Source: Stappia sp. (GTDB lineage Bacteria; Pseudomonadota; Alphaproteobacteria; Rhizobiales; Stappiaceae). From it: 64,000 bases of DNA. Below the pieces are notes generated by a model. The model had not been told where the DNA came from. It ran no database searches and saw only the letters and a list, made by a program, of their open reading frames with translations. How positions within the stretch are numbered: the stretch's first letter is position 1; every line of letters starts with the position of its first letter. The stretch lies in assembly GCF_048268045.1 (NCBI RefSeq), contig NZ_JBLWWG010000010.1, forward strand, positions 47,288-111,287, written 5' to 3'. Shown here one piece after another: positions 7,721-32,089 of this stretch. The position numbers and the translations under genes are program-made.

Positions 7721-7787
7721 ATTGGGATTTCCAAGCTGGCGGCGGTCTCGATAGATAGAAGGTGCAGGCCTTATGGATACGAGACAC

Positions 7788-10667: not shown

Positions 10668-12842
10668 TCAGCCGCGCGCGGATGCCTTCACCTCGAGACG
10701 ACGGGCGTGCAGGATCGGCTCGGTGTAGCCCGACGGCTGGCTCGTGCCTTTGAACACCAGATCGCAGGCCGCCTTGAAGGCAATGGAGGCGTCATAGTCC
10801 TTCGCCATCGGCCGATAGAGCGGGTCTCCGGCGTTCTGGCCGTCGACGACGGCCGCCATGCGCTTCATCGTTTCCATGACCTGCGCCTGAGTGCAAACAC
10901 CGTGACGCAGCCAGTTGGCGATGTGCTGCGAGGAAATGCGCAGCGTCGCCCTGTCCTCCATCAGTCCGATATCGTTGATGTCCGGCACCTTGGAACAGCC
11001 GACGCCCTGGTCGACCCAGCGCACCACGTAGCCGAGGATGCCCTGGGCGTTGTTGTCGAGCTCGGCCTGGATCTCTTCCGCCGTCCAGTTCGGCCGCTCA
11101 GCGACCGGGATCGAGAGAATGTCGTCGAGGCTGGCGCGACCGCGCGTGGCCAGCTCCTTCTGCCGGGCGGCGACATCGACCAGATGATAGTGCAGCGCAT
11201 GAAGGGTCGCGGCGGTCGGCGACGGCACCCAGGCGGTGGTGGCGCCCGCCTTCGGATGGCCGATCTTCTGCTCCAGCATCGCCTGCATCAGATCGGGCAT
11301 GGCCCACATGCCCTTGCCGATCTGGGCGTGCCCCGGCAGGCCGCACTCGAGGCCCACGTCCACATTCGAGTTTTCATAGGCCTGGATCCACGCAGCCGAC
11401 TTCATGTCGCCCTTGCGAATCATCGGGCCAGCTTCCATCGACGTGTGCATCTCGTCGCCGGTGCGGTCGAGGAAGCCGGTGTTGATGAAGCAGACGCGGG
11501 CGGATGCAGCGCGGATGCACTCCTTGAGGTTGACCGTGGTGCGGCGCTCCTCGTCCATGATGCCCATCTTGAGCGTGTTGGCGGCAAGGCCCAGCACCTT
11601 CTCGACGCGGGAGAACAGCGTCTGCGCGAAGGCGACCTCCTCCGGCCCGTGCATCTTCGGCTTGACGATGTAGAGCGAGCCCGCGCGCGAGTTGGCGCGC
11701 AGGCCGCCGCCATTGGCGCCACCGCTGCCGATGTCGTGCTTGGCGATCAGCGCCGTCATCATGGCATCGAGAATGCCCTCTGGGATCTCCCCGCCATCCT
11801 CGTCGAGAACCGCCGGCGTCGTCATCAGGTGACCGACGTTACGCACAAGCATCAGCGAACGGCCGTGGAGGGTGAGCGCGCCGCCTTGCGGGGTGGTGTA
11901 GGTTCGATCCCCCTCCATGCGCCGGGTGACCGTCTTGCCGCCCTTCTCGAAACTGGCGGACAGATCGCCCTTCAGCAGGCCGAGCCAGTTGCGATAGGCG
12001 ACGACCTTGTCCTCGGCATCAACCGCGGCGACGGAATCCTCGCAGTCCATGATGGTGGAGACGGCCGCCTCCAGCACCACGTCGGCGATGCCGGCGGCAT
12101 CCGCCTTGCCGATCGGGCTCGTGCGGTCGACCACGATCTCCAGGTGAAGGCCGTTCTTGGTGAGGAGCACCGCGTCGGGGGCGGCGGCATCGCCGCGATA
12201 GCCGGCGAACTGGCCCGCGTCCTTCAACGTCATCTCGCCGCCAGAGGAAGATGCGACCACAAGAGTGCCGTCACGCACGCAAAGCCCGGCGGCCTCCGCC
12301 CAGGAGCCGGACAGTGGGGCGCGCGCGTCGAGAACCTGGCGCGCATAGGCCACCACCTCTGCGCCGCGCGCGGCGTCATAGCCGCCCGGCTTCGGCAGGC
12401 TGCCCATGGCATCCGTGCCGTAGAGCGCATCATAGAGCGAGCCCCAGCGCGCATTCGCCGCATTGAGCGCGTAGCGGGCGTTGGTGATCGGAACGACGAG
12501 CTGCGGGCCTGCGAGCGTGGAGATTTCCGGGTCGACATCGGCGGTCGTCACGGCGAAGTCGCCGCCCTCTTCCACGAGATAACCAATCTCGCGCAGGAAC
12601 GCGGTGTAGGCCTTTAGGTCGACAGGACCGGGATGCGCACGGTGCCAGTCGTCGATCTTCGCCTGAAGCTCGTCGCGGCGCGCAAGAAGCTCGCGGTTCA
12701 CCGGTGCGAGGTCGCGCAGAATGTCCGCGAACCCGGACCAGAAGTCACCGGCTGCGACGCCGGTTCCCGGCAGTGCCTCCTTCTCGACGAAGTCGCGCAA
12801 TTCGGGGGCAATCTTCAGGCCGGCGATTTCGATGCGATCCAT
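10668..12842 (-). CDS. glcB: Malate synthase G
   Basis: [40 protein letters not shown] and [12 protein letters not shown] motifs; ~724 aa. Confidence 0.97.
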
Positions 12843-14227: not shown

Positions 14228-16741
14228 ATGCAAGCGCCACTTTTCATCGCCGCCATAGCCGGCCTTCTTGTCGTCATATCGCTGATCGAACCGCTGGCAC
14301 GACGCCTCGGGCTGGCGGCGTCCGTGCTTCTCGCCGTGGTCGGCGTTGGCATCGGAGCTGCTTCGGCCTGGCTCTACCACACGCCGCGCACAGACGTTTT
14401 CAACGAGATCGCGAGCGTTTTCGTCAATCTGCCGCTTAACTCGAGCGGCATTTTGAACCTGTTCCTGCCGGTGCTGCTGTTCCAGACCACGCTGACGCTC
14501 GACGTGCGGCGCATGGCGGAGGATGCAGGCGTCATCTTCGCCATGGCGGTGGTGGCGGTGCTGGTGGCGACAGTCTTCATCGGCGCGGCCCTTGCCCCGT
14601 TCGCCGGTCTCTCCCTGGTTGCCTGCTTGCTGCTTGGCTCCATCGTCGCCACGACCGATCCCGTCGCCGTCGTGGCCATCTTCCGAGACATCGGCGCGCC
14701 GGCCCGCCTCGGGCGGTTGGTCGAGGGTGAGAGCCTTCTCAACGACGCGGCGGCGATCGCGCTCTTCGTCATCCTGCTCGGCGTTCTCACTGGCGGCCAG
14801 ACGCCGAGTGTGCTCGACGGATTGTCAATCTTCGGCTGGAGCCTGCTCGGAGGCCTGACACTCGGCTATCTGGGTGCCCAGACGCTCGTCCGCCTGCTGC
14901 CTGTCGTGCGCGAGTTCCGCCTGGCGCAGGTCACGTTGAGCGTGGCGCTGCCCTACCTCGTCTATGTGCTTGCCGAGCATGTGGCAGGCGTTTCCGGTGT
15001 CGTCGCGGTCGTGGCTGCGGGCATCGTCATCAATCTGGTCGGACCGACGCGTGTGAGCCCCGACGGCTGGACTTACCTCAACGACGTCTGGAACCAGATC
15101 GCCTTCTGGGCCTCGTCGCTGATCTTCATGCTCGCCTCGATCCTGATCCCCAAACTGCTGGTCGATGTCGGCTGGTCGGACCTCGGTCTGCTTGTCATCG
15201 TCATCGTCTCCGCGCTGGTCGCACGCGGCGTCGTGCTCTTCGGACTGTTGCCATTGATGTCCGCGCTGAAGCTGTCGCAACCGGTGAGCACACCGTTCAA
15301 GACCGTCATGCTGTGGGGCGGCATGCGCGGCGCGATCACCCTGACGCTGGCGCTCGGCGTCACCGAGAACGCGGCGATTGATCCGCAGGTTCAGCGCTTC
15401 GTCGCCGTTCTTGCCACCGGTTTCGTGTTGTTCACGCTGCTCGTCTACGGCACGACACTGAAACCCCTCATCCGCATCTTCGGCCTCGACAAGCTCGCCC
15501 CCATCGACGTGGCGCTGCGCTCTCAGGTGCTCGCCCTCGCCCTGGCGGAGGTGCGAGAGGGCATCTCTCGTGCCGCCAAGAGCTATGGCATGGCGCCCGA
15601 GATCGCCGAAAACGTCGATCGTCCCTACCGCCAGCGCCTGTCGAACGAAGCGGAAGGGGCCAGTGGCGCGGCCGAGATCCTCGACAGAGACCGGGTCACG
15701 CTCGGACTGGTCGCGCTGTCGAACCGGGAACGTGAGATCGTCCTGCGCCACTTGCTCCAGCGTACCGCCTCAAGCCACACGGCGGAGGTCATGCTCGCGA
15801 AGATCGGACGGATCGGCGATGCCGCGCGCTCCGGCGGACGCATCGAGTACAACCGCGCCGCGCGTGACGCGCTCGCCTTCCCCGCGACAATGCGGATGGC
15901 GCAATGGTGCCAGCGGCGTCTGATGTACGACCGCTGGCTCGCCCGCCTGCTCGCCGACCGCTACGAGATGCTGCTGCTGAAACGCATCGTACTCGACGAG
16001 TTGCTGGCCTTCACCGGCGAGAAGATCGAGCCGCTGCTCGGTCACCGTGTGACGGAGATCCTCACGGAGATCCTGCTGCATCGGCGCGAAGCGACCGTGA
16101 CCGCGCTCGAGGCGCTCAGGCTCCAGTATCCCGACTACGCCGACAGTCTCGACCAGCGTTTCCTGCAAAAGGCGGCCCTGCGCATCGAGGAGGACGGATA
16201 CCGCACGCTGTTCTCGCAGAACCTGATCGGCGCGGAGCTGTTCTCCAATCTTGCACAGACCGCGCACCATCAGCGCGCCCATGCCGACCGCCGTCCGAAG
16301 CTGGACCTCGGCATGCATACCGAGGAGCTTGCCGGCCAGCTCCCCCTCTTCCACGATCTCTCGCCGGAGCGCGTCCACGCGATCTCGAAACTGATGCAGC
16401 CGCGCTTTGCCGTTCCCGGAGAGACCATCATACGCAAGGGGGAGCACGGCGACACGGCCTATTTCATCTCCTCCGGCGCGGTAGAGGTGGTCACCGGACA
16501 ACAACGCATCCGCCTCGGCCGCGGCGACGTCTTCGGCGAGATCGCGCTCCTGACTGGCGGGCTGCGGACTGCGGACGTTCACGCCCTCGGATATTGTCAT
16601 CTGCTGGTGCTGACGCGCTCCGACTTCCGCGAACTGTTGCGCCGGGATCCAGATCTGCAGACGCAGATGAGCGTGATGGTCCGCGAGCGCCAGGCGATGA
16701 ACGCGCAGGCAGTGGAAGACGCGGCAGCCGAGGACACATGA
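14228..16741 (+). CDS. CPA1 (NhaP-type) Na+/H+ antiporter with C-terminal cyclic-nucleotide-binding domain
   Basis: ATTDPVAV, GESLLNDA and WGGMRGAI motifs; C-terminal GDVFGEIALLTGGLRTADV cassette. Confidence 0.9.
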   Translation: MQAPLFIAAIAGLLVVISLIEPLARRLGLAASVLLAVVGVGIGAASAWLYHTPRTDVFNEIASVFVNLPLNSSGILNLFLPVLLFQTTLTLDVRRMAEDAGVIFAMAVVAVLVATVFIGAALAPFAGLSLVACLLLGSIVATTDPVAVVAIFRDIGAPARLGRLVEGESLLNDAAAIALFVILLGVLTGGQTPSVLDGLSIFGWSLLGGLTLGYLGAQTLVRLLPVVREFRLAQVTLSVALPYLVYVLAEHVAGVSGVVAVVAAGIVINLVGPTRVSPDGWTYLNDVWNQIAFWASSLIFMLASILIPKLLVDVGWSDLGLLVIVIVSALVARGVVLFGLLPLMSALKLSQPVSTPFKTVMLWGGMRGAITLTLALGVTENAAIDPQVQRFVAVLATGFVLFTLLVYGTTLKPLIRIFGLDKLAPIDVALRSQVLALALAEVREGISRAAKSYGMAPEIAENVDRPYRQRLSNEAEGASGAAEILDRDRVTLGLVALSNREREIVLRHLLQRTASSHTAEVMLAKIGRIGDAARSGGRIEYNRAARDALAFPATMRMAQWCQRRLMYDRWLARLLADRYEMLLLKRIVLDELLAFTGEKIEPLLGHRVTEILTEILLHRREATVTALEALRLQYPDYADSLDQRFLQKAALRIEEDGYRTLFSQNLIGAELFSNLAQTAHHQRAHADRRPKLDLGMHTEELAGQLPLFHDLSPERVHAISKLMQPRFAVPGETIIRKGEHGDTAYFISSGAVEVVTGQQRIRLGRGDVFGEIALLTGGLRTADVHALGYCHLLVLTRSDFRELLRRDPDLQTQMSVMVRERQAMNAQAVEDAAAEDT

Positions 16742-16808: not shown

Positions 16809-18263
16809 TCAGGACGACGGCGCGTCGCCGGTCTCCCGCTCGCTCCACATCTGGATACGCCGATAGATCGTCGAGGGACTGACCCGAAGCGCCTGGGCGG
16901 CGCGTGGGATGTTGCCACCGCATTGCTCGATGGCGCGTTCGATGGTGCGGCGAATGACCGTTTCCAGCGGTTCGATGGCATGCCGGGCGGACAGGCCTGA
17001 CGGCTCCGCATCGACGATGGGCGGCGCGCCGGCCGACTGCAGGGTGGCCAGCGGAGCGACGACGGCCCTCGCCGCCTCTCTGACCAGGGCGGGCAGCATG
17101 GTTTCATCCATGACCTCGCCATCGTTGAGGACGACGGCCCGGCGGATGGCGTTTTGCAGCTGTCGGATGTTGCCTGGCCAGTCGCAGGCAAGCAGGGCCT
17201 GCTCGCAGCTTTCGCTGAAGCTGCGAAACCGCTTGTCATCCTCCGCCGAAAAGGCGGCCAGAAACTCCCGCGCGATCAGCAGTACGTCGTCCTCACGTTC
17301 GCGCAAGGGAGGCAGCTCCACCGGAACCACATGCAGGCGGTAGAAAAGGTCCTCGCGAAAACGCCCTTCCTCGACCTCGACCTGGGGATTGCGGTTGGTG
17401 GCGCAGACGATGCGCACATCGACCGGCCGCACGGCATCCTCGCCCACCCGCTGCACCGAGCGCTCCTGGAGCACGCGCAGCATCTTCGACTGCAGCTCGA
17501 GGTCCATCTCGCAAATCTCGTCAAGAAACAGCGTCCCCCCGTCGGCGGACAACATCGCTCCCAGCCTGTCCGACACAGCACCGGTGAAAGCGCCGCGGCC
17601 ATGGCCGAAGATCTCGCTTTCGAGCATTCCCTTCGGAATGGCCGCGCAATTGATCGTGATCATCGGCCCCTTGGCCCTGCGGCTCATGCCATGGATCGCG
17701 GCGGCACACAGCTCCTTCCCCGTTCCGCTCTCTCCGGTGATGAAGATCGTGGCGTTGGTGGGGGCGGCATTGTGCAGGATGCGATAGACGGTGCGCATGG
17801 CGCGCGAACGGCCGATCATGCCGGCCAGACGGTCCGGCTCCTCGCTTTCGTCGGCCTCCGCAGCCAGTTCCTCGATGCGGTGAGCCATGCACACCCGGTC
17901 GAGAGCATTGCGCAAGGTGACCCTCAGCCGCTCGGCGGAAAACGGCTTCATGATAAAATCGTAGGCCCCCTCGCGCATGGCCTCCACGGCCATTTTGACA
18001 GACGCCTGACCGGTGACGAGCACAACTTCACAAGCCGCCCGGCGGCGCTTGATGTCACGCATCAGGTCGAGGCCGTTCCCATCGGGAAGGTTGACATCGA
18101 TGACGATGACCGAAGGACAGGCCTCCTCGACCGCCTCCAGGGCGCTGGCGCAGTCAGGCGCGATCAGGACCTCGACGTCCTGCGGCTCGAGATAGGCGCG
18201 ATAGGTCTCGGCGAGGGCACGTGTGTCCTCGACCAGCAAGACCTTGGGCCGGTTCGCTGTCAT
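16809..18263 (-). CDS. Sigma54-dependent response regulator, LuxO-like (REC-AAA+-HTH)
   Basis: LLVEDT and VIDVNLPD REC motifs; ITGESGTGKELC, GAFTGA, LDEICEMDLELQ, RFREDLFYRL, WPGNIRQL; Fis-type HTH at the C-terminus. Confidence 0.9.
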   Translation of the reverse strand: MTANRPKVLLVEDTRALAETYRAYLEPQDVEVLIAPDCASALEAVEEACPSVIVIDVNLPDGNGLDLMRDIKRRRAACEVVLVTGQASVKMAVEAMREGAYDFIMKPFSAERLRVTLRNALDRVCMAHRIEELAAEADESEEPDRLAGMIGRSRAMRTVYRILHNAAPTNATIFITGESGTGKELCAAAIHGMSRRAKGPMITINCAAIPKGMLESEIFGHGRGAFTGAVSDRLGAMLSADGGTLFLDEICEMDLELQSKMLRVLQERSVQRVGEDAVRPVDVRIVCATNRNPQVEVEEGRFREDLFYRLHVVPVELPPLREREDDVLLIAREFLAAFSAEDDKRFRSFSESCEQALLACDWPGNIRQLQNAIRRAVVLNDGEVMDETMLPALVREAARAVVAPLATLQSAGAPPIVDAEPSGLSARHAIEPLETVIRRTIERAIEQCGGNIPRAAQALRVSPSTIYRRIQMWSERETGDAPSS

Positions 18264-18539
18264 CCCCTTCAAAAACCACCCCTGTCGGCGGACGCCCGCT
18301 TTCTCGTGCGGTCAGCAAGGACCAGCGCCTGGCGCGGGTCTCGAGACGAGCCATCCATGTTTCTACCGGATTACCCAGGAAGCCGAAATTCCCAGTTTGA
18401 CTATATAGCCATGCGTTTCCTCCGCGCGCCGATGCCCTGATCGCAAGCCAACTCCCGAAATCGTGCCCGAGAAGGCATGCCACCCGGCAAGGCCAACAGC
18501 TTGCGCTAAGGCAAGTATACGCCAGAAGAGCCCGAATAA

Positions 18540-18561
18540 AATTGACATGCCAACGTCAATT
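18540..18561. promoter_or_regulatory. Inverted repeat AATTGAC-N8-GTCAATT upstream of the LuxO-like gene
   Basis: Perfect 7-bp arms in an AT-rich intergenic patch. Confidence 0.4.
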
Positions 18562-18643
18562 CGCCGCCCTGAGAGCGTTCAGGCAATGGTAGTTCTCACC
18601 ATACGCACCGCCCCGGTGCGGCGCGCCGGCGCCAAGCGGCGCC

Positions 18644-20770
18644 TCACGGCTGCTGCCGCGGATCCGTTGGGGCGAGATCATCGGGAAGAACGATACCTGC
18701 CCGGGCGAGATTGTCGCGCAGGGACGCCCAGACCTCGGGCGAACCGATGGGAAGACAGTTTCCGATCCAACGAAAGATATCCGCGTTCTCCGGCCGGCTC
18801 GGCAGCACCCATCGATCGCGGATACGCTTGCACAGGCGCTCCCCCTGCTGCCGCGCGCCCTCGACGCCGCCCGTCATGACCAGCGCGGCCAGATGCCAGG
18901 CATCGCCGATGAGACAGGCGCCATGCGCCTTTTCCTGGGCCCGCACAGCCGCAGCCCCCTCCCCGCACAAGACCATCGTTCCCGCGAAGAGGTTCCACTG
19001 CAGCGGAGAAAAGGGAAGCCCGCGGTCGCGCACCCGAAGCGCGGTGCTGAGCGCCTCCGCCGAATGCCCGTTGCAGGCCAGGCCATAGGCAGCGGACAAT
19101 GCGACCCAGGGGTCGCTGTCGTTCAGATCGAGCGCCTTTCGGTGATGGCGTTCGGCAATGCCGAACCGGCGTTGCAAGGCGGCGCTCCAGGAAAAACAGG
19201 AATGGGCGCGGCAATCGAACGGATCGAGGCCGAGCGCGGTTCCCGCAAGTGCGCTCGCGCGCTCCAACGAGCGATGGGAGTAGCTCGTGCCCGGAAACAC
19301 CAGGTGACGTGCATTGATAACCTGGGCGAGGCCCGAGTAAGCCGGAGCGTAGCGCGGATGTTCCTCGATCAACGCGCTGAAGACCGCCTCGGCACGCAGC
19401 GAATCCTCGATACGCATGGAATTCAGCAGTCCGCGCCCGCGAAGCAGCCGGTCGTAAACATCGAGTTCCGCGTCCGGCAGGTTTGCCAGTTCCTGAAGCC
19501 GCTCGGCCGAGATATGGGCATTGGTGGCCATGGCGATCTCGCCGAGCAGCGAAAGCTGGCGCGACATCAGGACATCAAGAGGCACTTCCGAAGTCCGCCC
19601 CCAGACATAGTGCCCCGTCCTGTGGTTCTTCACGGTCACCGTATAGGCAGCCCGGTCCTCGGCGCGCATGGCGGCGACGCCGATGCGGTAGACAGGGATG
19701 CTCGAGCGTTCCAACTCGTCATCCACCGTGTCGATCACCGTCCACTCGCGAAAGCGAAGGAGGCGGGCAACGAGGTCGTAGCGGAAAACCTCCGCGAGCG
19801 GTCCGTCGCCGCCGGCGCGCATCACCGCGCTCACCGGATCGACCACCACGACAAGATGCCCGTCAGCGCTACGGCCGGCGGAAGACCGGCCAGCCGGCCG
19901 CGCAGGAGGAAGAGGCGCGGCGGCGGGAGCCTCCGCGAACCCCGGCTGCCCGGAGGCGGTCGCCTCCGACGCAAGATCGAAGTGTTCGGGGAAGCGCCCG
20001 AGCTTAATCTCGACGATCAGTGCCTGGGTCTCGCTGGAGGGTTGGGTGTCGAATTCCTCCTCCAGGACATTCCAGAGGTCTTCGTAGGCGCGAAGCGCCG
20101 TCGCATAGTCCCCGTTCGCGGCACGCGCCCTGATGAAGGCACGGCAGGCCGGTTCGTGAGTCGGATCCAGATTGAGAAGCGCGAGGGCCGCATCCTCGAC
20201 CCGACTCAAGTCGCCGTCGACCGCCGCGATGCGAGGTTCCAGCAGGCCGCGCAACTCGTCGTGCAACTGTTGTCGCCGCACCCGCAGCCATGCGGTGAAC
20301 GGTTCCGCCAGCACCTCCCCTCCCTCGAACAACCGCTCGGACAGCCGCCGCTCGTGCAGCAGGCGCGGAGGCAACCTGTCTCCCGGCTTGAGCAGGACAT
20401 CGACGTCCGTTCTGACCCGCGCCAGGTCGACGGCGATCGCCTGCTTGTCACTCGACAGTCCGTCGAAACCAAGGGTTTCGAGATTGCGCCGGAGGATCAG
20501 CAGCGTCTGACGCAGCGAGGACCGCGCGTGGTGCTCCGAACTGTCTTCCCAGAACAGATTGGCTGCGGCTTCTCGCGGCAAGTGGCCGTCCGGCGACAGG
20601 CACAGGCGCGCCAGCAGCCCCTCGGCCTTGCGCGAGCGGAAGGTGACCGGAATTCCGTCAACGGCAAACCGGGGAGCGCCAAGCACGACGACATCGAGCA
20701 CCGGCCCACTGCGAGCGGTTTCAGAGCGCGACGGCGCGCCCTGCGCGCGTCTGGTTCGCCGGTCTTCCAA
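18644..20770 (-). CDS. SARP/BTAD-domain transcriptional regulator with C-terminal TPR region
   Basis: FRSRKAEGLLARL, LFWEDS.EHHARSSLRQTL and LLNLDPTHEPACR..YATALRAYE motifs; TPR-like helices. Probable TTG start at 20770 behind a GGGGG SD. Confidence 0.82.
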   Translation of the reverse strand: MEDRRTRRAQGAPSRSETARSGPVLDVVVLGAPRFAVDGIPVTFRSRKAEGLLARLCLSPDGHLPREAAANLFWEDSSEHHARSSLRQTLLILRRNLETLGFDGLSSDKQAIAVDLARVRTDVDVLLKPGDRLPPRLLHERRLSERLFEGGEVLAEPFTAWLRVRRQQLHDELRGLLEPRIAAVDGDLSRVEDAALALLNLDPTHEPACRAFIRARAANGDYATALRAYEDLWNVLEEEFDTQPSSETQALIVEIKLGRFPEHFDLASEATASGQPGFAEAPAAAPLPPARPAGRSSAGRSADGHLVVVVDPVSAVMRAGGDGPLAEVFRYDLVARLLRFREWTVIDTVDDELERSSIPVYRIGVAAMRAEDRAAYTVTVKNHRTGHYVWGRTSEVPLDVLMSRQLSLLGEIAMATNAHISAERLQELANLPDAELDVYDRLLRGRGLLNSMRIEDSLRAEAVFSALIEEHPRYAPAYSGLAQVINARHLVFPGTSYSHRSLERASALAGTALGLDPFDCRAHSCFSWSAALQRRFGIAERHHRKALDLNDSDPWVALSAAYGLACNGHSAEALSTALRVRDRGLPFSPLQWNLFAGTMVLCGEGAAAVRAQEKAHGACLIGDAWHLAALVMTGGVEGARQQGERLCKRIRDRWVLPSRPENADIFRWIGNCLPIGSPEVWASLRDNLARAGIVLPDDLAPTDPRQQP

Positions 20771-20974
20771 GCTATTTCCCCCCGCCGCCCGTAATTCGCC
20801 GCGAGCCTGGAACACCCGGTCGACGTTGCCTCATCCCGGTCCGGCGGCGCACCTGCCAAATGCGACCTTCCACCCAAGGCTGAGAAAATCACGGACAGAT
20901 AACGCTAATTGGTGTTGCATCCGAATAACAAGCAATTGTTGCAATCGGTATCGACTACAAGCGCCTATGCGACC

Positions 20975-21222
20975 GTGGGGAGACCGGCCCCGCAGTCATA
21001 AAAGACATATGAATCAGTTCGTTGCCTTCTCCTTCAGGAGGAACGACGCGTTCTTGGGTCGGCCGCTCGGCCAACCCCGCACAGGTGCCATCGAAACGGC
21101 AAGGTCGAGGCCGGCCTCGCTGAGAGGCGTCCGTTTCGATGCACGGCGAGCTTTGGAAGCCTTTTCGGTTTCAGCTCACACGTGACCCAACTGGGCCGGG
21201 GAATTTCCCCCGGCCCGTTTTT
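20975..21222 (+). ncRNA. Candidate structured sRNA A (several hairpins ending in an intrinsic terminator); family unassigned
   Basis: Stems CATCGAAACGG/CCGTTTCGATG (21089-99/21131-41), CGAGG-ccgg-CCTCG, GGGTcGGCC-gctc-GGCCaACCC and GAGCT..AGCTC. No annotated plus-strand gene here. Confidence 0.45.
21193..21222 (+). terminator. Rho-independent terminator
   Basis: GGGCCGGGG-aatttc-CCCCGGCCC-gTTTTT. Confidence 0.75.
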
Positions 21223-21334
21223 CCCGCCACCAGCACAAGAGGCTGGAACGGGGGGGCTTGCGGAAAATGCCCTTCATCGCTTTGGGTAGGGAGCAAGCCG
21301 CCAGAATTGTGGGGAGCAGAATCGCCCGACGACG

Positions 21335-21350
21335 CGGCGCTGTAATTGCG
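21335..21350 (+). promoter_or_regulatory. Candidate sigma54 -24/-12 promoter
   Basis: CGGCGC-TGTAA-TTGCG: GG-N10-GC with TT before GC; deviates from TGGCAC-N5-TTGCW at 3 positions. Confidence 0.4.
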
Positions 21351-21408
21351 CATTCGACGGGCAACGGGTTTTCAGTAGATGCTTTTGGGAGGAAATTCAG
21401 AAGGATCG

Positions 21409-21447
21409 GCCACCCGCACGCGATACTCGCGGCGGGTGGTCTTTTTT
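21409..21447 (+). terminator. Rho-independent terminator, U-tract on plus strand (may also serve the convergent MCP)
   Basis: GCCACCCGC-a-CGCGA-tac-TCGCG-GCGGGTGGT-c-TTTTTT. Confidence 0.75.
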
Positions 21448-21475
21448 GTCGAACTGACTGCCCCGGGCAATCGCC

Positions 21476-22846
21476 TCAGGCCACGTGCACTTTCGTGTCC
21501 TCGCCCTGCAACCGTCGAATATCGGAGAAGAAGTCGCGGATATCCTTGGTGATGGACTTGGCGTGCCCCTGAAGGTCGGACGAGACCACAAGGAAGCTTG
21601 TGGCCGCACCCTCCGTCTTCTCGATCGCATCGCTCACACTCGAGACATTTCGGTTGAGAGTGGAGGTTCCCTGGGCCGCCTGCTGCACGTTGATCGAGAT
21701 CTCGCGCGTCGCCGCACCCTGCTCCTCGACCGCGGCTGCAATTGCAGCGGTAAGACTGTCGATCTCGCCCACAGTCGAGGCAATCGACCCGATGGTGGCA
21801 ACCGCGCGCGTCGTCGCGGCCTGCACCTCCGACACCTGCTTGGCGATGTCCTCGGTTGCCTTGGAAGTCTGGCCGGCCAGCTGCTTCACCTCCTGCGCGA
21901 CGATGGCGAAACCGCGCCCCGCCTCGCCGGCGCGCGCCGCCTCGATGGTGGCGTTCAGCGCCAGCAGGTTGGTCTGCTCGGCAATCGCCTGGATCAGGCC
22001 GATCACATCGCCGATCTTCTGGGCGGTGACCGAGAGCAGGCCGACCTCGGAAGAGGCGTTGTCCGTGATTCCGGTGGCGCGGCGGGCAACGTCGGAAGCT
22101 CCGGAGATCTGACGCGCGATCTCGACGATCGAGCTGGCCAGTTCCTCGGCCGCGGCCGCAACCGTCTGGACGTTGCAACTGGTCTGCTCGGACACCGCAG
22201 AGGCGGACAGGGCCTCCTCCGACGCGGCGTTTGCCACAGCCTTCAGATTTCCGGCGCCGGCGCCGACCTGATCGGCGGTATTGCCGACGGCCTGCAGCGC
22301 ACCATCCACCTTGACCTGGAAGCGGTCGACAGCTTCCTTCAGGGTCTTGGTCCGGTTCTCCTGCGCCTCCATCAGAATCTCTTGATAGGTGGAGATCGCA
22401 TAGTCGAGATCGAGCATGACCGCACGGTTCATCGCCTGGATCGTCACCGTCAGGCGCTTCGGCGACAAGCGGTACTTTCGCACCACGATCGCGACAAGTT
22501 CGTTCAGGACAAACTGATAGCCGGCGATGTACCAGCGCGGCTCGAGGCCGATACGGACGTGAGCCCGCCCGATCCGGTTGATGCTGTCGACATATTCCTG
22601 GTCGAACGCGGCGTGAAACAGACGCCCCCAATGGGCTTTCTGCGCGCTCTCCAGCGAGGCTTGTCGGCTGCCGACCAGATTCTTCAACGCAGGCTCGGAC
22701 ATGACGTGCTTGTAAAAGCGACGCAAAATGTCGTCCAGATGCGCTTCCACCACAGGCCAGAGCGCGCGAAGGCAGTCTCTGGTTTCATCGGTAATGCAGG
22801 CAAAGGAGACGCGACGCCCGACTTGCTCAATTTCTGTTTTCGACAT
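21476..22846 (-). CDS. Globin-coupled (HemAT-like) soluble methyl-accepting chemotaxis protein
   Basis: [22 protein letters not shown] globin motif; [30 protein letters not shown] signalling hairpin; no TM segment. Confidence 0.93.
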
Positions 22847-23277
22847 CTGGGGGGCCTCTATTCAATTCCGAAAACAAGTTTCCCCTATATTTCTTGAGAT
22901 TCGACTAATTTTTGCCAGCCCTTCCGTAGGGTTTTTAAAAAACAAACCACAACAACCAATCGCACGAAGATCAAAATAATCCTTTGAAATCAAATGCATA
23001 AAAGCGAGACCCAAAATTCCCACGCGAAAATCTCCCCAAAGGCCGCACTGCCGCTGCGTTCCAGGATACCCCCGAAAAATGAATACTGACACAGAAAATC
23101 AAAAACCCGCAGACTTACGCAATTTACCGAAAATATTCATTTAAATATGAAAGAAAGCTCCTGCAATCGCAGCAGGAAATCTGCAACAGCGAATTCATGT
23201 CGCAATAAAACGGAATTAAGGGCGCGCTGCCGGCAAAGCCATTGGTGGAAACTCCGGCCGAGGCAGCGCTCGGAAAC

Positions 23278-23352
23278 TGGCTGGGGCGGCAGGATTCGAA
23301 CCTGCGCATGACGGTACCAAAAACCGTTGCCTTACCACTTGGCGACGCCCCA
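23278..23352 (-). tRNA. tRNA-Gln(TTG)
   Basis: TGGGGCGTCGCCAAGTGGTAAGGC...ACGGT-TTTTGGT-ACCGT...GGTTCGAATCC...CCAGCCA; CCA end encoded. Confidence 0.97.
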
Positions 23353-23368
23353 CCGTTTGCGGTCGCCT

Positions 23369-23397
23369 GTATAGCCAGCAGCCATCGGAGACGCAAG
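23369..23397 (-). promoter_or_regulatory. RpoD-type promoter of tRNA-Gln
   Basis: CTTGCG-N17-CTATAC, matching the alphaproteobacterial CTTGAC-N17-CTATAT pattern. Confidence 0.6.
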
Positions 23398-23499
23398 CAC
23401 GGCATTGTCATGGCCACCTTCCCCGACGGCGCGAACAAGCACCTACCGGCGGCAACGCCTGTCATCCACAGGCTGATTCAATTTCGAGGCAACGTCGGG

Positions 23500-23528
23500 C
23501 TTGCAGTCGCAAAATCATGGTGCTAATA
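23500..23528 (+). promoter_or_regulatory. RpoD-type promoter of tRNA-Pro
   Basis: CTTGCA-N17-CTAATA. Confidence 0.55.
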
Positions 23529-23592
23529 ACCCGCCACACAGACGAAATGCCTGCGGCGGCGACGCTCGACACGGCAGGTTTTCTGAAAATGT

Positions 23593-23669
23593 CGGAGTGT
23601 AGCGCAGCCTGGTAGCGCACCTCGTTCGGGACGAGGGGGTCGCAGGTTCAAATCCTGCCACTCCGACCA
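23593..23669 (+). tRNA. tRNA-Pro(CGG)
   Basis: CGGAGTGTAGCGCAGCCTGGTAGCGCA-CCTCG-TTCGGGA-CGAGG...GGTTCAAATCC...CTCCGACCA. Confidence 0.97.
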
Positions 23670-24146
23670 TTATTTGAAGACATCTAGTTGTGCACTGTAA
23701 GTGGACCTCCTGTCGTCCCAGCAGAAACACACCATCGCTGATACGGTTCCTGGAGGTCACGCACCCTAGGTCCTCTTGCCAGTCAGCGTAGATCGCTGCC
23801 CCCCCATATCAAGAAACACGGCTCACGACCCTTGTTTGGGTATTTTTCGGCGACCCTAACGCTGGCCCGCCGAATCCTGCGGAACCTGCCGCGCGAATTC
23901 TTGCCCGCACAAAGATCCTTGCCGACAACGATGATTTTTAACTTCGTACCGTCGGCGGGGAGCTGCACCCAACAATCATGCCATTGCAGGCGAGACTACG
24001 AAAAGCAGGTTTTCCCGGCGCGAGCAGAACATTGCCCCCTCCGCGCGTGCAATCGCGGTCAAATGTCTTCAGCAGCCAAGCTTGCCCCCAGCCCCTTGCC
24101 CTGGCTCTCACGACATCTCAGCCCGGACCTATCCCTCGCCCTCCTG

Positions 24147-25255: not shown

Positions 25256-26458
25256 TCAGCGGTGGCGCGGGCGCAGGAAAAGCATGGGGAAATAGCCTGC
25301 CGCGAAGAGCAGATAGGCGAGCGACCAGCAGCCGGCCGCGCCGTGAAACAGAGGCATCGCCTCCTGCGGGACAAAACCGGCGAGCACACGGGCGAGCGCG
25401 CCTGCGAAAACCAGCACAAAGATCGCCAGCTCCAGCCGCCCGGCGACAAGTCCCCTGCCGGAGTGTCCCCGGCTTGCGCGTGTCATGACCGCAAGCGTCA
25501 TCATGCCCACCGTACCGGCTGTCCACACATGCACCATGGCCAAGGGGTCGATCGCGGCAACGCCGAGCACGCCGGCTCCGACCAGCAGGAAGCCGGCGGG
25601 AATCGTGGCATAGGCCGCGTGCAGCACGAAGAGCAGCGGCTCGCTGCGGGTGGCAAGGCCACGCCAGCGAGCAACGCGCACGCTGTTTGCAAGGCCTGCG
25701 AGGACAAGAAGTACGCCGGTTGCGCCCGCCTCCGGCCAGGCGATCCAGCTTACCAGGGCAATGACGGACATAAGCATGGCACTGCCATCAACGCGCGAAA
25801 AGGGCGCGGGAAGCCGGTCGCTGCCACGCATCATCAGCCAGTTTCGCGTGAAAGCCGGAATGATCCGGCCACCCACAAGCATGATCATGGCCAGCACGAC
25901 GGCCACGGCCGCGCGGAGTGAATGATCGGCGGCGCCGGCAAGCGCGCTTTCCAGATGGAAGCAGGCATTTGTCAGGCCAAAGACCGCGACCAGAGCGACA
26001 ATGCGCAGGTTGCGATAGTTCCCTCCGGCGATCACCTCGCGTGCAAACACAAAGACCAGTGCCAGCGGGAAAAGCATGTCGAGGGCCGCAGCAAGCCAGG
26101 GGCCGAGCAGAGCGGACGTCGAGACGGCGACGCGGCCGATCACCCACAGAACAACGAGCGCGAACAGCAAGCCTCCGCTTACCAACGGCCGTCCCGTCCA
26201 GTTGCTGACCGCCGTGAGCGCAAATCCCGCGATGATTGCCGAAACTCCGCCGAAAAGCAGCGTATGGACATGCCATTCGACCGGCAGGAAGCGGGTTGGC
26301 ACTTCAAGACTGCCGGAAAATACCGGGAGCCACACCAGTATGCTCGCGACCATTGCGATGGCTCCGAGAAAGAAGAACGGCCGGAAGCCGCCGGAGAGCC
26401 AATAGGCATCGGCGAAAGGGAAGGCAGCACGGTCGGCGTGCGGGAGGGCCTGCGACAT
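25256..26458 (-). CDS. nnrS: NnrS-family membrane protein (copy 1)
   Basis: GFRPFF, WHVH..LFG, NWTGR, GGRIIPAFTRNW and TLAVMTRASRGHSGR motifs. Confidence 0.92.
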   Translation of the reverse strand: MSQALPHADRAAFPFADAYWLSGGFRPFFFLGAIAMVASILVWLPVFSGSLEVPTRFLPVEWHVHTLLFGGVSAIIAGFALTAVSNWTGRPLVSGGLLFALVVLWVIGRVAVSTSALLGPWLAAALDMLFPLALVFVFAREVIAGGNYRNLRIVALVAVFGLTNACFHLESALAGAADHSLRAAVAVVLAMIMLVGGRIIPAFTRNWLMMRGSDRLPAPFSRVDGSAMLMSVIALVSWIAWPEAGATGVLLVLAGLANSVRVARWRGLATRSEPLLFVLHAAYATIPAGFLLVGAGVLGVAAIDPLAMVHVWTAGTVGMMTLAVMTRASRGHSGRGLVAGRLELAIFVLVFAGALARVLAGFVPQEAMPLFHGAAGCWSLAYLLFAAGYFPMLFLRPRHR

Positions 26459-26575
26459 TGGGTGATGCCTCGAGCGTTTCGTGGAGTGGAACAAGACGGC
26501 AGGCGTGGCGAAATGCCCGTCACTGCCGCCTTCAGCGGAAGGACCGGGCTCATGCGCCCGGCCCTTGCCGAAGGA

Positions 26576-27013
26576 TCAAAGACCGCCGAGCAGGGTCTCG
26601 AACTTCTTGCCTGCCCGGCCGGGGTTCTTAACCGCCTTTACCTCGGCGAGATTGACCGGCTCGCCGACGACGACCGCCGCCACCATACCCATGGCGAAAT
26701 GTGGCTTGCACTTGATGCCGTAGACCCCCGGGGTGTCGAAGGTCACCGTCACATCCTTGCTCATCTTGCCGGCAAAGGGCTCCGCGCCTTGCGGGATCAT
26801 GCCCTTGATCGTCTCGGCGTTGTGACCCGGATTGGTCGACACGAAGCGAACCGTGTCCCCAGGGGCGATCTGAAGGAGGTCGGGTTCAAAAACCATGACG
26901 CCCGTCGCCCCCTTGTTGAGCATCTTCACTTCGTGCTCCGCAGCCTGAGCCACGCCCATCATCGCGACGAGACCGGTGGCGAGCGCAAGGGTGAAAATCC
27001 TGATCCTGTTCAT
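26576..27013 (-). CDS. paz: Pseudoazurin (blue copper protein)
   Basis: Signal peptide; HEVKMLNKG..G.MVFEP, GHNAETI and YGIKCKPHFAMGMV (His/Cys/His/Met ligands). Confidence 0.95.
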   Translation of the reverse strand: MNRIRIFTLALATGLVAMMGVAQAAEHEVKMLNKGATGVMVFEPDLLQIAPGDTVRFVSTNPGHNAETIKGMIPQGAEPFAGKMSKDVTVTFDTPGVYGIKCKPHFAMGMVAAVVVGEPVNLAEVKAVKNPGRAGKKFETLLGGL

Positions 27014-27111
27014 CTTCCTGCTCCGAATTTGGTTTCCGGGGGACTTTCCCGCGGGGGCGGGCTCGCAAAGCCCCGTCCCTTTCTGTCTAGCGCCCCGCGC
27101 CTTTGCGAACG

Positions 27112-27125
27112 TTGTGCGAGCGCAA
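27112..27125. promoter_or_regulatory. NnrR/FNR-type box upstream of paz
   Basis: TTGTG-CGAG-CGCAA, ~100 bp upstream of the paz start. Confidence 0.6.
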
Positions 27126-27145
27126 ACTCGGGGCGACTTGAAAGA

Positions 27146-28660
27146 TCAGGGCAGCTTGAAGAAGTTGACGATCTCGACGCGGTCACCGCTCGCCTCGTCA
27201 ATCAGGGCAAACGTTAGGTCACCCGCGAGGTCGGGAGTTCCCGCGACGGTGACGCGAAGCTGGCGTGACTGGCCCGCCTCAAGCGGGATCACCGCGATCC
27301 CGTCGTCGAACTTGCCTTCACCGACCACGCCGAGCACCAGCGGCGCCTGTCCATTCACCTCGAGACGAAGCCCGCCCGAACCCTGCGAGACACGCGACAG
27401 GCGAACCTCATAGGCGTTGCGAATGCGCCCCTCCGACAATGCCACGGCGATGGGATTGCGCTCGTGCGCGACCGTCATCGAGATCGTCGAGCGGGTCGAG
27501 ACGGAAACAACAACCGTCGCGAGGATCGCGACCAGCGCCACCGTGAGGGCTACGATCTTGGGCCTGACCAAGCGGACGGGCTTGCGCGCCGAACCGGAGC
27601 GGCCGCGCTCGATGTTGGTCCAGGCTTCATAGTCGATGAGCCCGCGCTCGCGGCCGACCTTCGACATGGTGGAGTCGCAGGCATCGACACACAGTCCGCA
27701 GTTGATGCAGGCGAGATTCGGTCCCTCGCGAATGTCGATGCCCATCGGACAGACTTGGACGCAAGCCATGCAGTCAACGCAATCGCCGGCCGGCTCGCCA
27801 AGAGCGCGTGCGGCAGCCGCCTTCTTGACCGACATCCGCTCTTCACCGCGATAGTCGCGGTAAGCGACGACGAAGGCATCCTCATCCCAGACGGCGCCCT
27901 GCAGGCGGGGCCAAGGGCACATGTAGGTGCACATCTTCTCGCGCGCGAAGCCGGCCAGTGCATAGGTCGTGAGCGTCAACGTGAGAATGGCACCATAGGC
28001 GGCGACCGAGGCCTCGCCCGCAAGCGCCTGGGAGATGAATGTCGGCGCATCGACAAAATAAAGCACGAAGGCTCCACCCGTGCCGATGCCGATGGCAAGC
28101 CAGATCACATGCTTGAGGCTCTTGCGAAGGACCCGGCCGACAGTCATCGGCAGATGCATCTGCCGAAGTTGCTCCCGGCGGTCGCCCTCGAGCCAGCGCT
28201 CCGTCAGCAAGTAAAGGTCCGTCCAAACCGTCTGCGGGCAAAAATAGCCACACCAGATACGTCCGGCGATCACGTTGGTGAGCACCAGCATGATCGTCGC
28301 GGCGACCAGAACCGCCGTCAGATAGTAGAGCTCCTGCGGGCGGATCTCGAGAGCGAAGAGGAAGAAGCGAACATGCGCGAGGTCGAACAACACCGCCTGC
28401 CCCGGAAGCTCCGCCCCGCGATCCCAGCGCAGGAACGGCACGGTGTAGTAGACCGCAAGGCACAGGACGACCATCACCCACTTGAGGCGCCGATAGAAAC
28501 CGGACACCGACTGCGGCACCACCGGCTCGCCCGTCTGGGCGGGCGGGCGCACAATCGGCTTTCTGCGACGCGTCGGCCTCGCCGCCGCAGTCGGTGACGC
28601 GGCCGGCAGCGTGGCGGTCACGGCTTCGGATTTCAGGAAGTCTGCGGGGATATAGGTCAT
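27146..28660 (-). CDS. ccoG: CcoG/FixG/RdxA-family 4Fe-4S membrane protein
   Basis: GRIWCGYFCPQTVW, CTYMCPWPR, DCVDCMACVQVCPMGIDIR and CINCGLCVDAC motifs. Confidence 0.92.
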   Translation of the reverse strand: MTYIPADFLKSEAVTATLPAASPTAAARPTRRRKPIVRPPAQTGEPVVPQSVSGFYRRLKWVMVVLCLAVYYTVPFLRWDRGAELPGQAVLFDLAHVRFFLFALEIRPQELYYLTAVLVAATIMLVLTNVIAGRIWCGYFCPQTVWTDLYLLTERWLEGDRREQLRQMHLPMTVGRVLRKSLKHVIWLAIGIGTGGAFVLYFVDAPTFISQALAGEASVAAYGAILTLTLTTYALAGFAREKMCTYMCPWPRLQGAVWDEDAFVVAYRDYRGEERMSVKKAAAARALGEPAGDCVDCMACVQVCPMGIDIREGPNLACINCGLCVDACDSTMSKVGRERGLIDYEAWTNIERGRSGSARKPVRLVRPKIVALTVALVAILATVVVSVSTRSTISMTVAHERNPIAVALSEGRIRNAYEVRLSRVSQGSGGLRLEVNGQAPLVLGVVGEGKFDDGIAVIPLEAGQSRQLRVTVAGTPDLAGDLTFALIDEASGDRVEIVNFFKLP

Positions 28661-28782
28661 TCAGGTCTCCACGGCCGGAGCCGTCCGCAAGGAGGGCCGC
28701 GACGGGGACCGGTGGTAAAACGGGGGGCACCGGTCTCCAAAAGTGCTGGAGACCACACTAGGAAACGTTCGCCGCCACTTCT

Positions 28783-28796
28783 TTGTGCTGGAACAA
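28783..28796. promoter_or_regulatory. FNR/NnrR-like box upstream of the ccoG-like gene
   Basis: TTGTG-CTGG-AACAA (TTG-N8-CAA), ~130 bp upstream. Confidence 0.4.
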
Positions 28797-28837
28797 ACTG
28801 AAAAGCGATCCGGCGCACCGCCGGCGGAGGCGATGCC

Positions 28838-29671
28838 TCAAAGCCCGATCCAGCTACGCAGGCGACTGAAGGCACCCTGCTCCTCGCGCACCAGACGGAT
28901 GCCGAGGTTCGAGGGCGGAATGCCGACCGAGCAGGCCCCGGCCTTCGGGTCGCGGATGAACGCCGTCATATAGGCGCGGTGGCTCCCCTCCGCGATCCGT
29001 GCGCCGCAGTTCTCGTGGCTCGTCATTGCGCCGGTTTGCGGGTCGATGCGGGTTCGCACATAGCAGGTACTTGTCCATTCCCAGACGTTTCCGGACAGGT
29101 CGTAGAGGCCGTTCTCATTGACGCCAAAACTGCCGAGCGGACGGGGATGAGGGTTGGGCGCACGTGCCCGGGCCGCCTCTTCCTGATATTCCTGCAACCA
29201 CCGGAGAGCGGGGTTGGCAGGATCGTCAACACCCTGGAACGCGTCGTCGGAAAAGCGCGATCCGGCGGCAAGCGCCCATTCGACATCGCTCGGCAAGCGC
29301 CAGCGATCGCCGGTCCTGCGGCTCAGCCATTCAGCGTAGGCGACCGCATCGTCCCAGTTCACACCGACGACCGGCAGGTCCGCTGCCTGGTCGGAAGCGA
29401 GCGCGACACACGCCCCATCCTCGACGCAAAGCCGGTACTCTCCCGCAGTTACCTGCCGCTTCATGATCTCGAACGGCTCATCCGCCACCAGCGTGACGAG
29501 GGCGCCATTGACCGCTCTCTCGCCCTTCAGGAACTCGCCCGGCTGCCTGTATTCAACCCGCACACCCTCGATGCGCACGCGCTCGGGGAGCTCAATCTCA
29601 CCGGCCAACGTTGTCACGGGCGCGATGGATACCAACAGGCAGGCAAGTGTTCGAATGAAACGCGGTTCCAT
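28838..29671 (-). CDS. nirV: NirV (formylglycine-generating-enzyme-like fold)
   Basis: PVVGVNWDDAVAYAEWLS, RLPSDVEW, NENGLYDLSGNVWEWT and GIRLVRE motifs; directly downstream of nirK. Confidence 0.88.
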   Translation of the reverse strand: MEPRFIRTLACLLVSIAPVTTLAGEIELPERVRIEGVRVEYRQPGEFLKGERAVNGALVTLVADEPFEIMKRQVTAGEYRLCVEDGACVALASDQAADLPVVGVNWDDAVAYAEWLSRRTGDRWRLPSDVEWALAAGSRFSDDAFQGVDDPANPALRWLQEYQEEAARARAPNPHPRPLGSFGVNENGLYDLSGNVWEWTSTCYVRTRIDPQTGAMTSHENCGARIAEGSHRAYMTAFIRDPKAGACSVGIPPSNLGIRLVREEQGAFSRLRSWIGL

Positions 29672-29746
29672 GGCAGGACGCCTTTCGCGGAGGGTTGGGC
29701 CGCCCCACCGCGGGGCAGCCCTGCCTTCAATTGACCAACCACCACC

Positions 29747-30868: not shown

Positions 30869-30937
30869 GGCTGTGTCCTTTCGTGTCGTCGGTCGTTATC
30901 GACGCCACGACTGAACACCACGTCGCGGTTTCCCTAT

Positions 30938-30951
30938 TTGAGAAAACGCAA
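30938..30951. promoter_or_regulatory. NnrR box of the nirK promoter
   Basis: TTGAG-AAAA-CGCAA (reverse strand TTGCG-TTTT-CTCAA) between divergent nirK and nnrR. Confidence 0.75.
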
Positions 30952-31036
30952 ACAAGATCGACATTCGGCCCGGATTTCTCAGGAAGTGCCGTTGCCGGGA
31001 ACAGAAACTGCAAGGAACCCTTACGGGAGATTACAC

Positions 31037-31738: not shown

Positions 31739-31763
31739 CGGGGCGGAGCGCCCTGCGGCTCCC

Positions 31764-32078
31764 CTAGTGCGACAGCTTCATCGTCACGATGCCGGCAATA
31801 ATGAGCAGGGCAGCCACGACACGCTGCGGCGAGATTGCCTCGCCCAAAAACAACACGCCGACGCAGAAGGCGCCCACGGCTCCAATGCCCGTCCAGACCA
31901 TATAGGCGGTGCCGAGCGGGAGATCGCGCATCGCAAGCGCGAGCAGGCCGAACGAGCCCAGCATCGCAACGATCATGACCAAGGTGGAGGGAAGATGGGT
32001 GAACCCTTGCGATTGCTTCATCGCATAGGCCCAGACGACCTCGAGCAGGCCAGCAACGAACAGAAGACCCCAGGACAT
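31764..32078 (-). CDS. sugE: SMR-family guanidinium exporter (SugE/Gdx)
   Basis: 104 aa; AGLLEVVW and LPLGTAYMVWTGIGAVG motifs; preceded by a guanidine-II riboswitch. Confidence 0.93.
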   Translation of the reverse strand: MSWGLLFVAGLLEVVWAYAMKQSQGFTHLPSTLVMIVAMLGSFGLLALAMRDLPLGTAYMVWTGIGAVGAFCVGVLFLGEAISPQRVVAALLIIAGIVTMKLSH

Positions 32079-32089
32079 AGCATCCCCGT

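Follow-up and report, generated by a model that had tools for sequence, protein, structure and literature searches.

A conserved non-coding RNA lies beside genes for a predicted SARP-type regulator and a putative LuxO-family activator in Stappia

In Vibrio, phosphorylated LuxO together with sigma-54 transcribes the Qrr small RNAs. SARP regulators of the AfsR type bind, as two protomers, direct repeats that stand in for the -35 element and lie a few bases ahead of the -10 element; to our knowledge, the SARP family has been studied almost only in actinomycetes. Caulobacter TacA is a sigma-54 activator of the orphan kind, and a hybrid kinase together with a separate histidine phosphotransfer (HPt) protein feeds it. 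Here we describe a locus of Stappia sp. that lies within a stretch of 64,000 nucleotides (contig NZ_JBLWWG010000010.1), called the window below, and in which the genes for a protoglobin-coupled chemoreceptor, a BTAD-domain regulator and a sigma-54-dependent activator are all on the minus strand. An earlier note on this DNA had read it as a possible LuxO-Qrr-like circuit. We found that the spacer upstream of the BTAD gene encodes a previously undescribed non-coding RNA on its plus strand, most plausibly controlled by the adjacent SARP-type regulator.

RNA, operator and promoter signals were compared across 13 distinct related loci that carry the BTAD/SARP gene, the window included (individual loci are cited by L numbers). 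Comparison of the window's upstream spacer with that of its closest relative revealed three conserved blocks, and two of these (blocks 1 and 2) are present in each BTAD locus, invariably on the strand opposite to that of the regulator genes (13/13). Block 2 ends in a terminator, T1, and contains ACGTGACCCAACTGGGCCGGG, a run of 21 bases that is invariant in 12 of the loci, with two base differences near its 3' end in L097, although the neighbouring activator is only 61-74% identical. The RNA strand holds no conserved open reading frame (ORF) in the 13 loci: stops interrupt each of the three frames, and conservation of a peptide is not seen. What lies here is a genuine RNA locus that is conserved and structured, codes for no protein and is delimited by a terminator. 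The earlier note had placed a small-RNA candidate in this spacer, with two plus-strand terminators, structured RNA and no plus-strand protein gene, and each of these points was borne out: the terminators are intrinsic (21192-21222 and 21409-21447), the fold of 21083-21222 stands out from shuffled sequences (z = -5.3), no ORF is conserved in relatives and the plus strand does encode a non-coding RNA.

Single-sequence folds of the RNA share an architecture in which a 5' GGRGUGCC motif is followed by a long helix with variable inserts and then, on the 3' side, by helix P2 (CACAUGCG pairing with CGCACGUG), an unpaired ACCCAACU and the terminator. The invariant stretch would span the 3' strand of helix P2 and the unpaired ACCCAACU and run into the terminator. 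Pairing in the 3' module is kept in 92-93% of cells (92.7%), compared with at most 44% when the partners were slid, and five base pairs are changed on both sides. A covariance model built from 11 loci scored 58-91 bits on those loci and 73-78 bits (E about 1e-15) on two held-out loci that were fetched afterwards; it finds one copy in the window, at 21138-21222. Helix P2 was defined by hand on this shorter module, and MAFFT-based RNAalifold over the whole 3' domain returned the terminator only. Rfam, run at the gathering threshold on the whole window and at E = 10 on 18200-21550, assigned no family to RNA 1, the best match being ar15 (RF02345) at 21120-21222 with 17.6 bits and E = 2.4 against a gathering score of 40. 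A side observation concerns the RNA's 5' part: L099 has a second GGGGTGCC...ATCGAAACG stretch at about 640-700 of its minus strand, about 100 nt before the conserved domain, which resembles window 21083-21100 and hints at repeated modules there.

A second unit follows on the same strand. In 10 of the 11 loci examined, a strong terminator stands 119-404 nt past T1; in the window this is T2. Its stem varies in sequence between sub-clades with the pairing kept, and the sequence ahead of it shows conservation inside sub-clades, with compensatory changes in a small hairpin. Because the second terminator lies about 200 nt from the chemoreceptor stop codon in L092 and L093, T2 is not merely the terminator of the chemoreceptor gene and belongs to the RNA strand. 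Two readings fit this unit, a second RNA in tandem or an extension of RNA 1 by read-through.

The BTAD gene next to this RNA is predicted to encode a SARP-type regulator. Its ORF (18644-20815) probably starts at 20701, as judged from a 99%-identical cluster of 685 residues (P0173), and Pfam matched BTAD only (E 2e-12), which confirms the domain that the earlier note had assigned to this co-oriented neighbour of the activator. The protein consists of an OmpR-like winged helix, the BTAD domain and a long C-terminal region that is annotated as TolB-like or TPR in some homologues. Its N-terminus gave a weak sequence match to the EmbR winged helix. An AlphaFold model of residues 1-260, made with 23 homologues (predicted local distance difference test score (pLDDT) 91; predicted template modelling score (pTM) 0.83), matched the SARP domain of AfsR in the transcription-initiation complexes 8K60 and 8HVR (E 2.5e-8, probability 1.0) and also EmbR 2FF4 (probability 1.0). 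Homologues are annotated 'SARP family transcriptional activator/TolB-like', two of them carrying a Trans_reg_C match, and identity is at least 46% in Stappia and at most 38% elsewhere (for example, Bradyrhizobium and Labrys).

Block 1 has the form AAAATCACG-N-A-N3-ATAACGC and presents two CGTKAT hexamers, 11 bp apart, on the regulators' strand. CGTKAT-N5-CGTKAT occurs once per SARP-bearing locus, always on the strand of the SARP gene (13/13); L084 and L097 have a second copy ahead of the activator gene, in the spacer, where L085, L094 and L095 have imperfect copies. The same search of 82 other loci gave one chance match, and the direct-repeat motif is specific to SARP-bearing loci. In the promoter region this repeat pair alone is conserved, and its layout is that of sites recognised by SARP/OmpR-type proteins. 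A -10-like hexamer of the form T...(A)T is found at the same position, 10 nt past the second repeat on the RNA strand, in all 13 loci (TTGCAT, TTTCAT, TTTGAT, TTGTAT, TTGGAT, TGTCAT, TCAGAT, TCAACT or TCTTGT). By analogy with AfsR, this geometry would fit a SARP-dependent promoter reading into the RNA: the SARP-like protein would bind the two 11-bp-spaced repeats and, as AfsR-type SARPs do, activate a sigma-70-type promoter there, and the RNA would act in trans. In L096 (identical to L001 in sequence), where the BTAD gene is wholly missing, there is no direct-repeat motif and the RNA core sequence has drifted, a single case that fits dependence of the RNA on the SARP-like protein.

Gene order was also conserved. 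The BTAD gene is followed by the activator gene and a convergent exchanger gene in all 13 loci, which come from Stappia and close relatives, and this synteny marks the SARP-type neighbour as a conserved partner in the Stappia lineage. No BTAD neighbour was seen at the 80 LuxO-like loci of a genome scan (0/80), and a metagenome scan with the SARP-like protein as query added three further loci only. In L095, L097 and L099 the island is fuller: a YcaO gene precedes the BTAD gene, and two oppositely oriented genes, one haem-peroxidase-like and one for a protein of about 130 residues, separate the BTAD gene from the activator gene. YcaO and the small protein are retained in L092-L094; both extra gene sets are gone from the window, L081, L087 and L098, and tblastn found no YcaO remnants in the window spacer. 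The best reading is that the locus is a reduced form of a Stappia-lineage-specific regulatory island, without the YcaO and peroxidase genes. Read along the regulators' strand, the full island would comprise the non-coding RNA(s) leftward, the direct-repeat operator, YcaO and the SARP-like regulator rightward, the haem-peroxidase-like gene and the ~130-residue protein leftward, the LuxO-family activator rightward and the convergent Na+/H+ exchanger; the window genome would have lost the YcaO and peroxidase genes and kept both regulators and the RNA locus. We found no published description of this island in the literature searched.

The island genes of the relatives have features of their own. 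YcaO is a stand-alone gene for about 440 residues. The haem-peroxidase-like protein has about 490-565 residues, with a weak Pfam An_peroxidase match in L097 and none in L099, and the ~130-residue protein is conserved and has no Pfam match. These three genes are interleaved with both regulators in the relatives (L095 942-6481, L097 851-6533, L099 997-7204; also L092-L094), and all three are gone from the window. A tie to the globin chemoreceptor, which had been suggested as possible, is weak, since that gene stands beside the RNA in only four of the 13 loci (window, L081, L092 and L093). Upstream of the chemoreceptor gene, at 22850-23700, G+C drops sharply to 0.41, and two divergent tRNA genes lie in this stretch (23281-23352, minus; 23593-23666, plus); the low-G+C stretch and the tRNA genes could be the boundary of the syntenic block. 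The coordinates of the locus are collected in Table 1.

Table 1 Positions of the genes, RNA features and putative control elements of the locus, in window coordinates
Feature	Position	Strand	Basis or remark
Na+/H+ exchanger with cNMP-binding domain	14228-16741		convergent to activator gene
Putative LuxO-family sigma-54-dependent response regulator	16809-18263	minus	Pfam, NCBIfam, structure matches
Two spacers within the locus	18264-18643 and 20702-21475		between minus-strand genes
Spacer between SARP-like gene and activator gene	18264-18643		site of peroxidase and small-protein operon in relatives
Predicted SARP-type transcription regulator	18644-20701	minus	BTAD by Pfam; predicted fold
Operator-like block AAAATCACGGACAGATAACGC	20886-20908		two direct hexamer repeats, 11-bp spacing
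Hexamers of the block	CGTTAT 20899-20904, CGTGAT 20888-20893	minus	
-10-like hexamer TTGCAT	20915-20920	plus	10 nt past second repeat; inferred promoter element
Non-coding RNA 1	20928-21222	plus	5' end inferred, 5' part variable
Conserved structured 3' domain of RNA 1	21083-21222	plus	folding, conservation
Invariant stretch ACGTGACCCAACTGGGCCGGG	21180-21200	plus	alignment of 13 loci
Intrinsic terminator T1	stem 21192-21217, U-tract to 21222	plus	
Second plus-strand unit	21223-21447	plus	ends at intrinsic terminator T2
Terminator T2	stem 21409-21440, U-tract to 21447	plus	
Protoglobin-coupled chemoreceptor	21476-22846	minus	

The other regulator of the locus, judged by its sequence, belongs to the LuxO family and not to NtrC, NtrX or FlbD, without reaching the status of a LuxO equivalog. 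Its ORF (16809-18272) spans 487 residues, with a probable start at 18263 taken from a 99%-identical 484-residue cluster (P0001), and Pfam finds the domains Response_reg, Sigma54_activat, AAA_lid_14 and a Fis-type HTH_8. The best of 114 NCBIfam models was Vibrio LuxO (NF041946) at 560.6 bits, under the equivalog cut-off of 800 bits, compared with 395 for AtoC, 380 for NtrC, 333 for NtrX and 312 bits for FlbD. The best solved relative was LuxO 5EP0 (393 bits; NtrC1, 306). The LuxO-type motifs quoted in the earlier note are common to the activator and LuxO 5EP0 in their alignment, with GAFTGA intact. Identity to the LuxO proteins of Aeromonas and Enterovibrio is 48-51%, and many alphaproteobacterial relatives, drawn from a scan of one genome per species, fall in the same range. 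Many of these carry the JGI label 'repressor protein LuxO', and hundreds of clusters auto-annotated as LuxO are found among the members of this widespread alphaproteobacterial family. A Bradyrhizobium japonicum LuxO reciprocal best hit was noted as early as 2004 (PMC524169), and the literature searched yielded no alphaproteobacterial LuxO-family activator with a described function. The annotation 'LuxO' should not be taken as evidence for Vibrio-type quorum sensing.

The activator is an orphan in the window, as had been proposed: when about 40 larger ORFs of the window were scanned with Pfam, neither a hybrid kinase nor an HPt gene turned up, and the sole kinase was a classical HAMP-HisKA kinase paired with an OmpR-type regulator (7773-9949). 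Downstream of the activator gene there is no luxU/HPt gene, the neighbour there being the convergent Na+/H+ exchanger. Many other alphaproteobacterial LuxO-like genes stand directly after a hybrid kinase gene with a receiver and a C-terminal HPt domain. Such a kinase, of 600-1240 residues, lies just upstream of the LuxO-like gene in L003-L011, L023, L031, L062, L067 and L072; the three that were read (L004, L006 and L067) contain PAS regions and a receiver, with an HPt domain fused at the C-terminus, and this fused kinase-receiver-HPt is a one-gene version of LuxQ/LuxU. The Stappia activator would be fed by a distant hybrid kinase/HPt, which is probably fused and adjacent in most alphaproteobacterial relatives, and would drive sigma-54 promoters outside the island region; its connection to the RNA would be one of conserved neighbourhood only.

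In the spacer that separates the SARP-like gene from the activator gene, conservation is confined to two motifs of the activator's leader, ACAGGGGTGG at 18276-18285 and CTTGCTGACC / CTGCTGACC at 18310-18319, both on the minus strand. Blastn shows no similarity of this spacer to relatives, neither a direct-repeat motif nor a conserved sigma-54 promoter is present, and its part at 18480-18640, which had been put forward as a source of RNA, shows no conservation at all. In the window, as at the matching positions of related loci, ACAGGGGTGG and CTGCTGACC lie 12-60 nt ahead of the activator start codon, and ACAGGGGTGG is similar to GGRGUGCC, the motif with which the conserved RNA domain is edged on its 5' side.

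Sigma-54 promoters were visible elsewhere. Rhodospirillales-type loci carry consensus or near-consensus sites directly after the LuxO-like gene: those in L057 (11732-11747), L073 (11435-11450) and L076 (2100-2115) precede genes for receiver-domain-only proteins, and a second L073 site (11973-11988) precedes a different small protein. Because these promoters drive receiver-domain protein genes, the visible local targets of the LuxO-like family are protein-coding. The window's own best consensus match (48434-48449, plus strand, one mismatch) was rejected as a sigma-54 promoter, because it appears to lie inside coding region 48360-48680, which we take, from its translation read by eye, to be the FCD domain of a GntR-type regulator.

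The RNA might be transcribed by the phosphorylated LuxO-like activator with sigma-54 and act on master-regulator mRNAs as Qrr RNAs do. The activator's LuxO-family assignment and intact GAFTGA speak for this, as do the shared neighbourhood of RNA locus and activator gene in 13/13 loci and a divergent Qrr/luxO layout of the same kind in Enterovibrio, but the promoter evidence argues against it. Scans of the window and of every spacer of the 12 related loci, allowing 1-5 mismatches, found no positionally conserved -24/-12 element in any spacer or upstream of either RNA unit. Matches to TGGCAC-N5-TTGCW with up to three mismatches numbered 240 in the window versus 252 in shuffles. The GG-N10-GC motif pointed out by the earlier note is present in the 774-bp spacer, but at chance frequency (19 versus 13.2 +/- 3.7 in shuffles; about 20 per kb in the whole window). 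The best sigma-54-like strings, CGGCGCTGTAATTGCG (21335-21350) and AGGCCAACAGCTTGCG (18490-18505), have 3-5 mismatches to consensus and are not conserved in the closest relatives. Neither spacer contains a LuxO box (TTGCAW3TGCAA) or a palindrome like it, and matches in the window are at chance level. Qrr (RF00378) was not matched in 18200-21550 up to E = 10, nor in the whole window or four related loci at the gathering threshold, whereas in an Enterovibrio locus, the positive control, Qrr was recovered at 83.6 bits, divergent from luxO and about 225 nt upstream of it. The RNA, moreover, is probably a structured transcript of 230-850 nt with one copy in the window, not a family of ~100-nt paralogues, and the Rhodospirillales promoters described above drive protein-coding genes, not small RNAs. 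One locus does favour the LuxO link: in L096 a diverged RNA-module match (22.7 bits) is oriented divergently from the activator gene, 410 nt upstream of it, and sigma-54-like CGGGACGCAAGTTGCT, with 2 mismatches, lies about 280 nt before that match; such a string is expected about 0.16 times by chance in this spacer, as estimated from the window scan counts. With no conserved -24/-12 element, LuxO box or Qrr similarity, the earlier note's sigma-54 promoter and enhancer-binding-protein-to-small-RNA module found no support, and we judge Qrr-like transcription by the activator to be improbable.

A cis-acting element is also unlikely, whether it served a downstream gene as leader or attenuator or, as an antisense or insulating terminator module, protected chemoreceptor or LysR genes that converge on it. 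It would suit L084, L085, L088 and L096, in which a LysR gene follows on the same strand (starting roughly 110 nt past the last terminator in L084 and L096), and the window, in which T2 is 29 nt from the chemoreceptor stop codon. However, the next gene is convergent in the window, L081, L092 and L093 and unrelated in L094 and L095, the invariant stretch and the structure are kept whatever gene is downstream, and two strong tandem terminators would stop any leader. That the transcript encodes a small peptide, such as a YcaO precursor of the ancestral island, has only a very slender probability. The YcaO gene is immediately across the operator in 7/13 loci, and a 73-codon frame of the window, from 20968, ends at a TGA within the invariant stretch; yet we rejected a peptide-coding RNA on the stops in all three frames, on indels that are not multiples of three and on the lack of any conserved peptide outside the DNA-invariant blocks. 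The invariant stretch shows no wobble-type variation either, and the RNA is kept in six loci that have lost YcaO.

We give an even chance to the overall reading that we prefer, of a reduced Stappia island with a SARP-driven, trans-acting RNA and an activator acting elsewhere. Several observations weigh against it. The -10-like hexamer is without the usual A at position 2, the transcription start of the RNA is a predicted one, and by its sequence the operator may work in either direction. The operator is separated from the conserved RNA domain by about 220 to about 750 nt, which include a variable, hairpin-rich stretch; because this distance varies, the domain may have its own unrecognised promoter or come from a processed precursor. 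No conserved local target complementary to the invariant stretch was found, and among sequencing runs no RNA run holding the region was found; the DNA runs that hold it are wastewater, bioreactor, sludge and phycosphere metagenomes and one coded organism. The RNA module and CGGGACGCAAGTTGCT of L096, finally, keep a LuxO link alive. Just upstream of the conserved RNA domain, the loci share no -35/-10 or -24/-12 element, and the variable hairpin found there suggests a longer precursor.

Where a hybrid kinase is usually adjacent, the Stappia lineage has a SARP-type regulator and, alongside it, a conserved non-coding RNA that has no Rfam family. The predicted operator gives a testable hypothesis, that the SARP-like protein activates the RNA, and the invariant stretch offers a handle for finding RNA targets. 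It is also conceivable, though doubtful, that the LuxO-family activator and the SARP-like protein jointly control a two-unit structured RNA that acts post-transcriptionally on the YcaO/peroxidase genes or on a wider regulon. That such joint control is an alphaproteobacterial counterpart of LuxO-Qrr, with an extra tier and a phosphorelay-fed activator, is a similarly long shot; if true, a regulatory RNA under SARP control would be seen for the first time, and LuxO-family proteins would gain their first functional context outside Gammaproteobacteria.

The window has further features outside the locus. A speF leader (6169-6300, 50.8 bits) and an ar45 small RNA (6309-6430, 49.2 bits) were found by Rfam in tandem on the minus strand, upstream of an ornithine/arginine decarboxylase-type gene (4924-6066). 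The genes of the region 25256-33752 suggest a cluster related to nitric oxide or denitrification: two for NnrS (25256-26494 and 32355-33752), one for a FixG-like ferredoxin (27146-28660), one with an FGE-sulfatase domain and one for a multicopper oxidase (29747-30868). At 39163-41109 the window encodes another protoglobin chemoreceptor, which carries a zinc-binding CZB domain.

Set beside the described systems, the locus resembles each in part. With Caulobacter ShkA-ShpA-TacA it shares an orphan REC-AAA+-HTH activator in an alphaproteobacterium, with a phosphorelay presumably encoded elsewhere. No Caulobacterales protein was among the 120 best matches of two protein searches with the activator, and we found no link to TacA in the literature searched. 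Like the AbcR/ar15 small RNAs, the Stappia RNA is intergenic and terminator-bounded, has a conserved unpaired stretch next to the terminator and a second tandem unit on the same strand, and has a LysR-type neighbour in some loci. It differs from them in its match score (17.6 versus 40 bits) and its invariant stretch, GUGACCCAACU, and it is apparently without the CU-rich anti-Shine-Dalgarno motifs of those families.

The likeness to Vibrio LuxO-Qrr lies in an activator of apparently the same family (REC-AAA+-HTH with GAFTGA, about 50% identical to gammaproteobacterial LuxO) and in a non-coding RNA gene that points away from the regulator cluster on its upstream side, an arrangement also seen for qrr1 and luxO. 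In contrast to Vibrio, the Stappia activator has no adjacent luxU/HPt gene and scores below the equivalog cut-off, and the locus is without a sigma-54 promoter, LuxO box or Qrr similarity. The Stappia RNA is longer (a domain of about 140 nt in a transcript of probably 230-850 nt) and single-copy in the window, and a SARP-type gene stands between it and the activator gene. With SARPs of the AfsR, EmbR and ActII-ORF4 type, the regulator shares the predicted winged helix and BTAD fold, and the two direct repeats of the locus, with 11-bp periodicity and at a fixed short distance upstream of a -10-like hexamer, may correspond to the sites of such regulators. It departs from these in that the protein is proteobacterial and has a long C-terminal TolB-like/TPR region, that the repeat CGTKAT is unlike actinomycete SARP boxes, and that the putative target is a non-coding RNA, not an antibiotic gene cluster.

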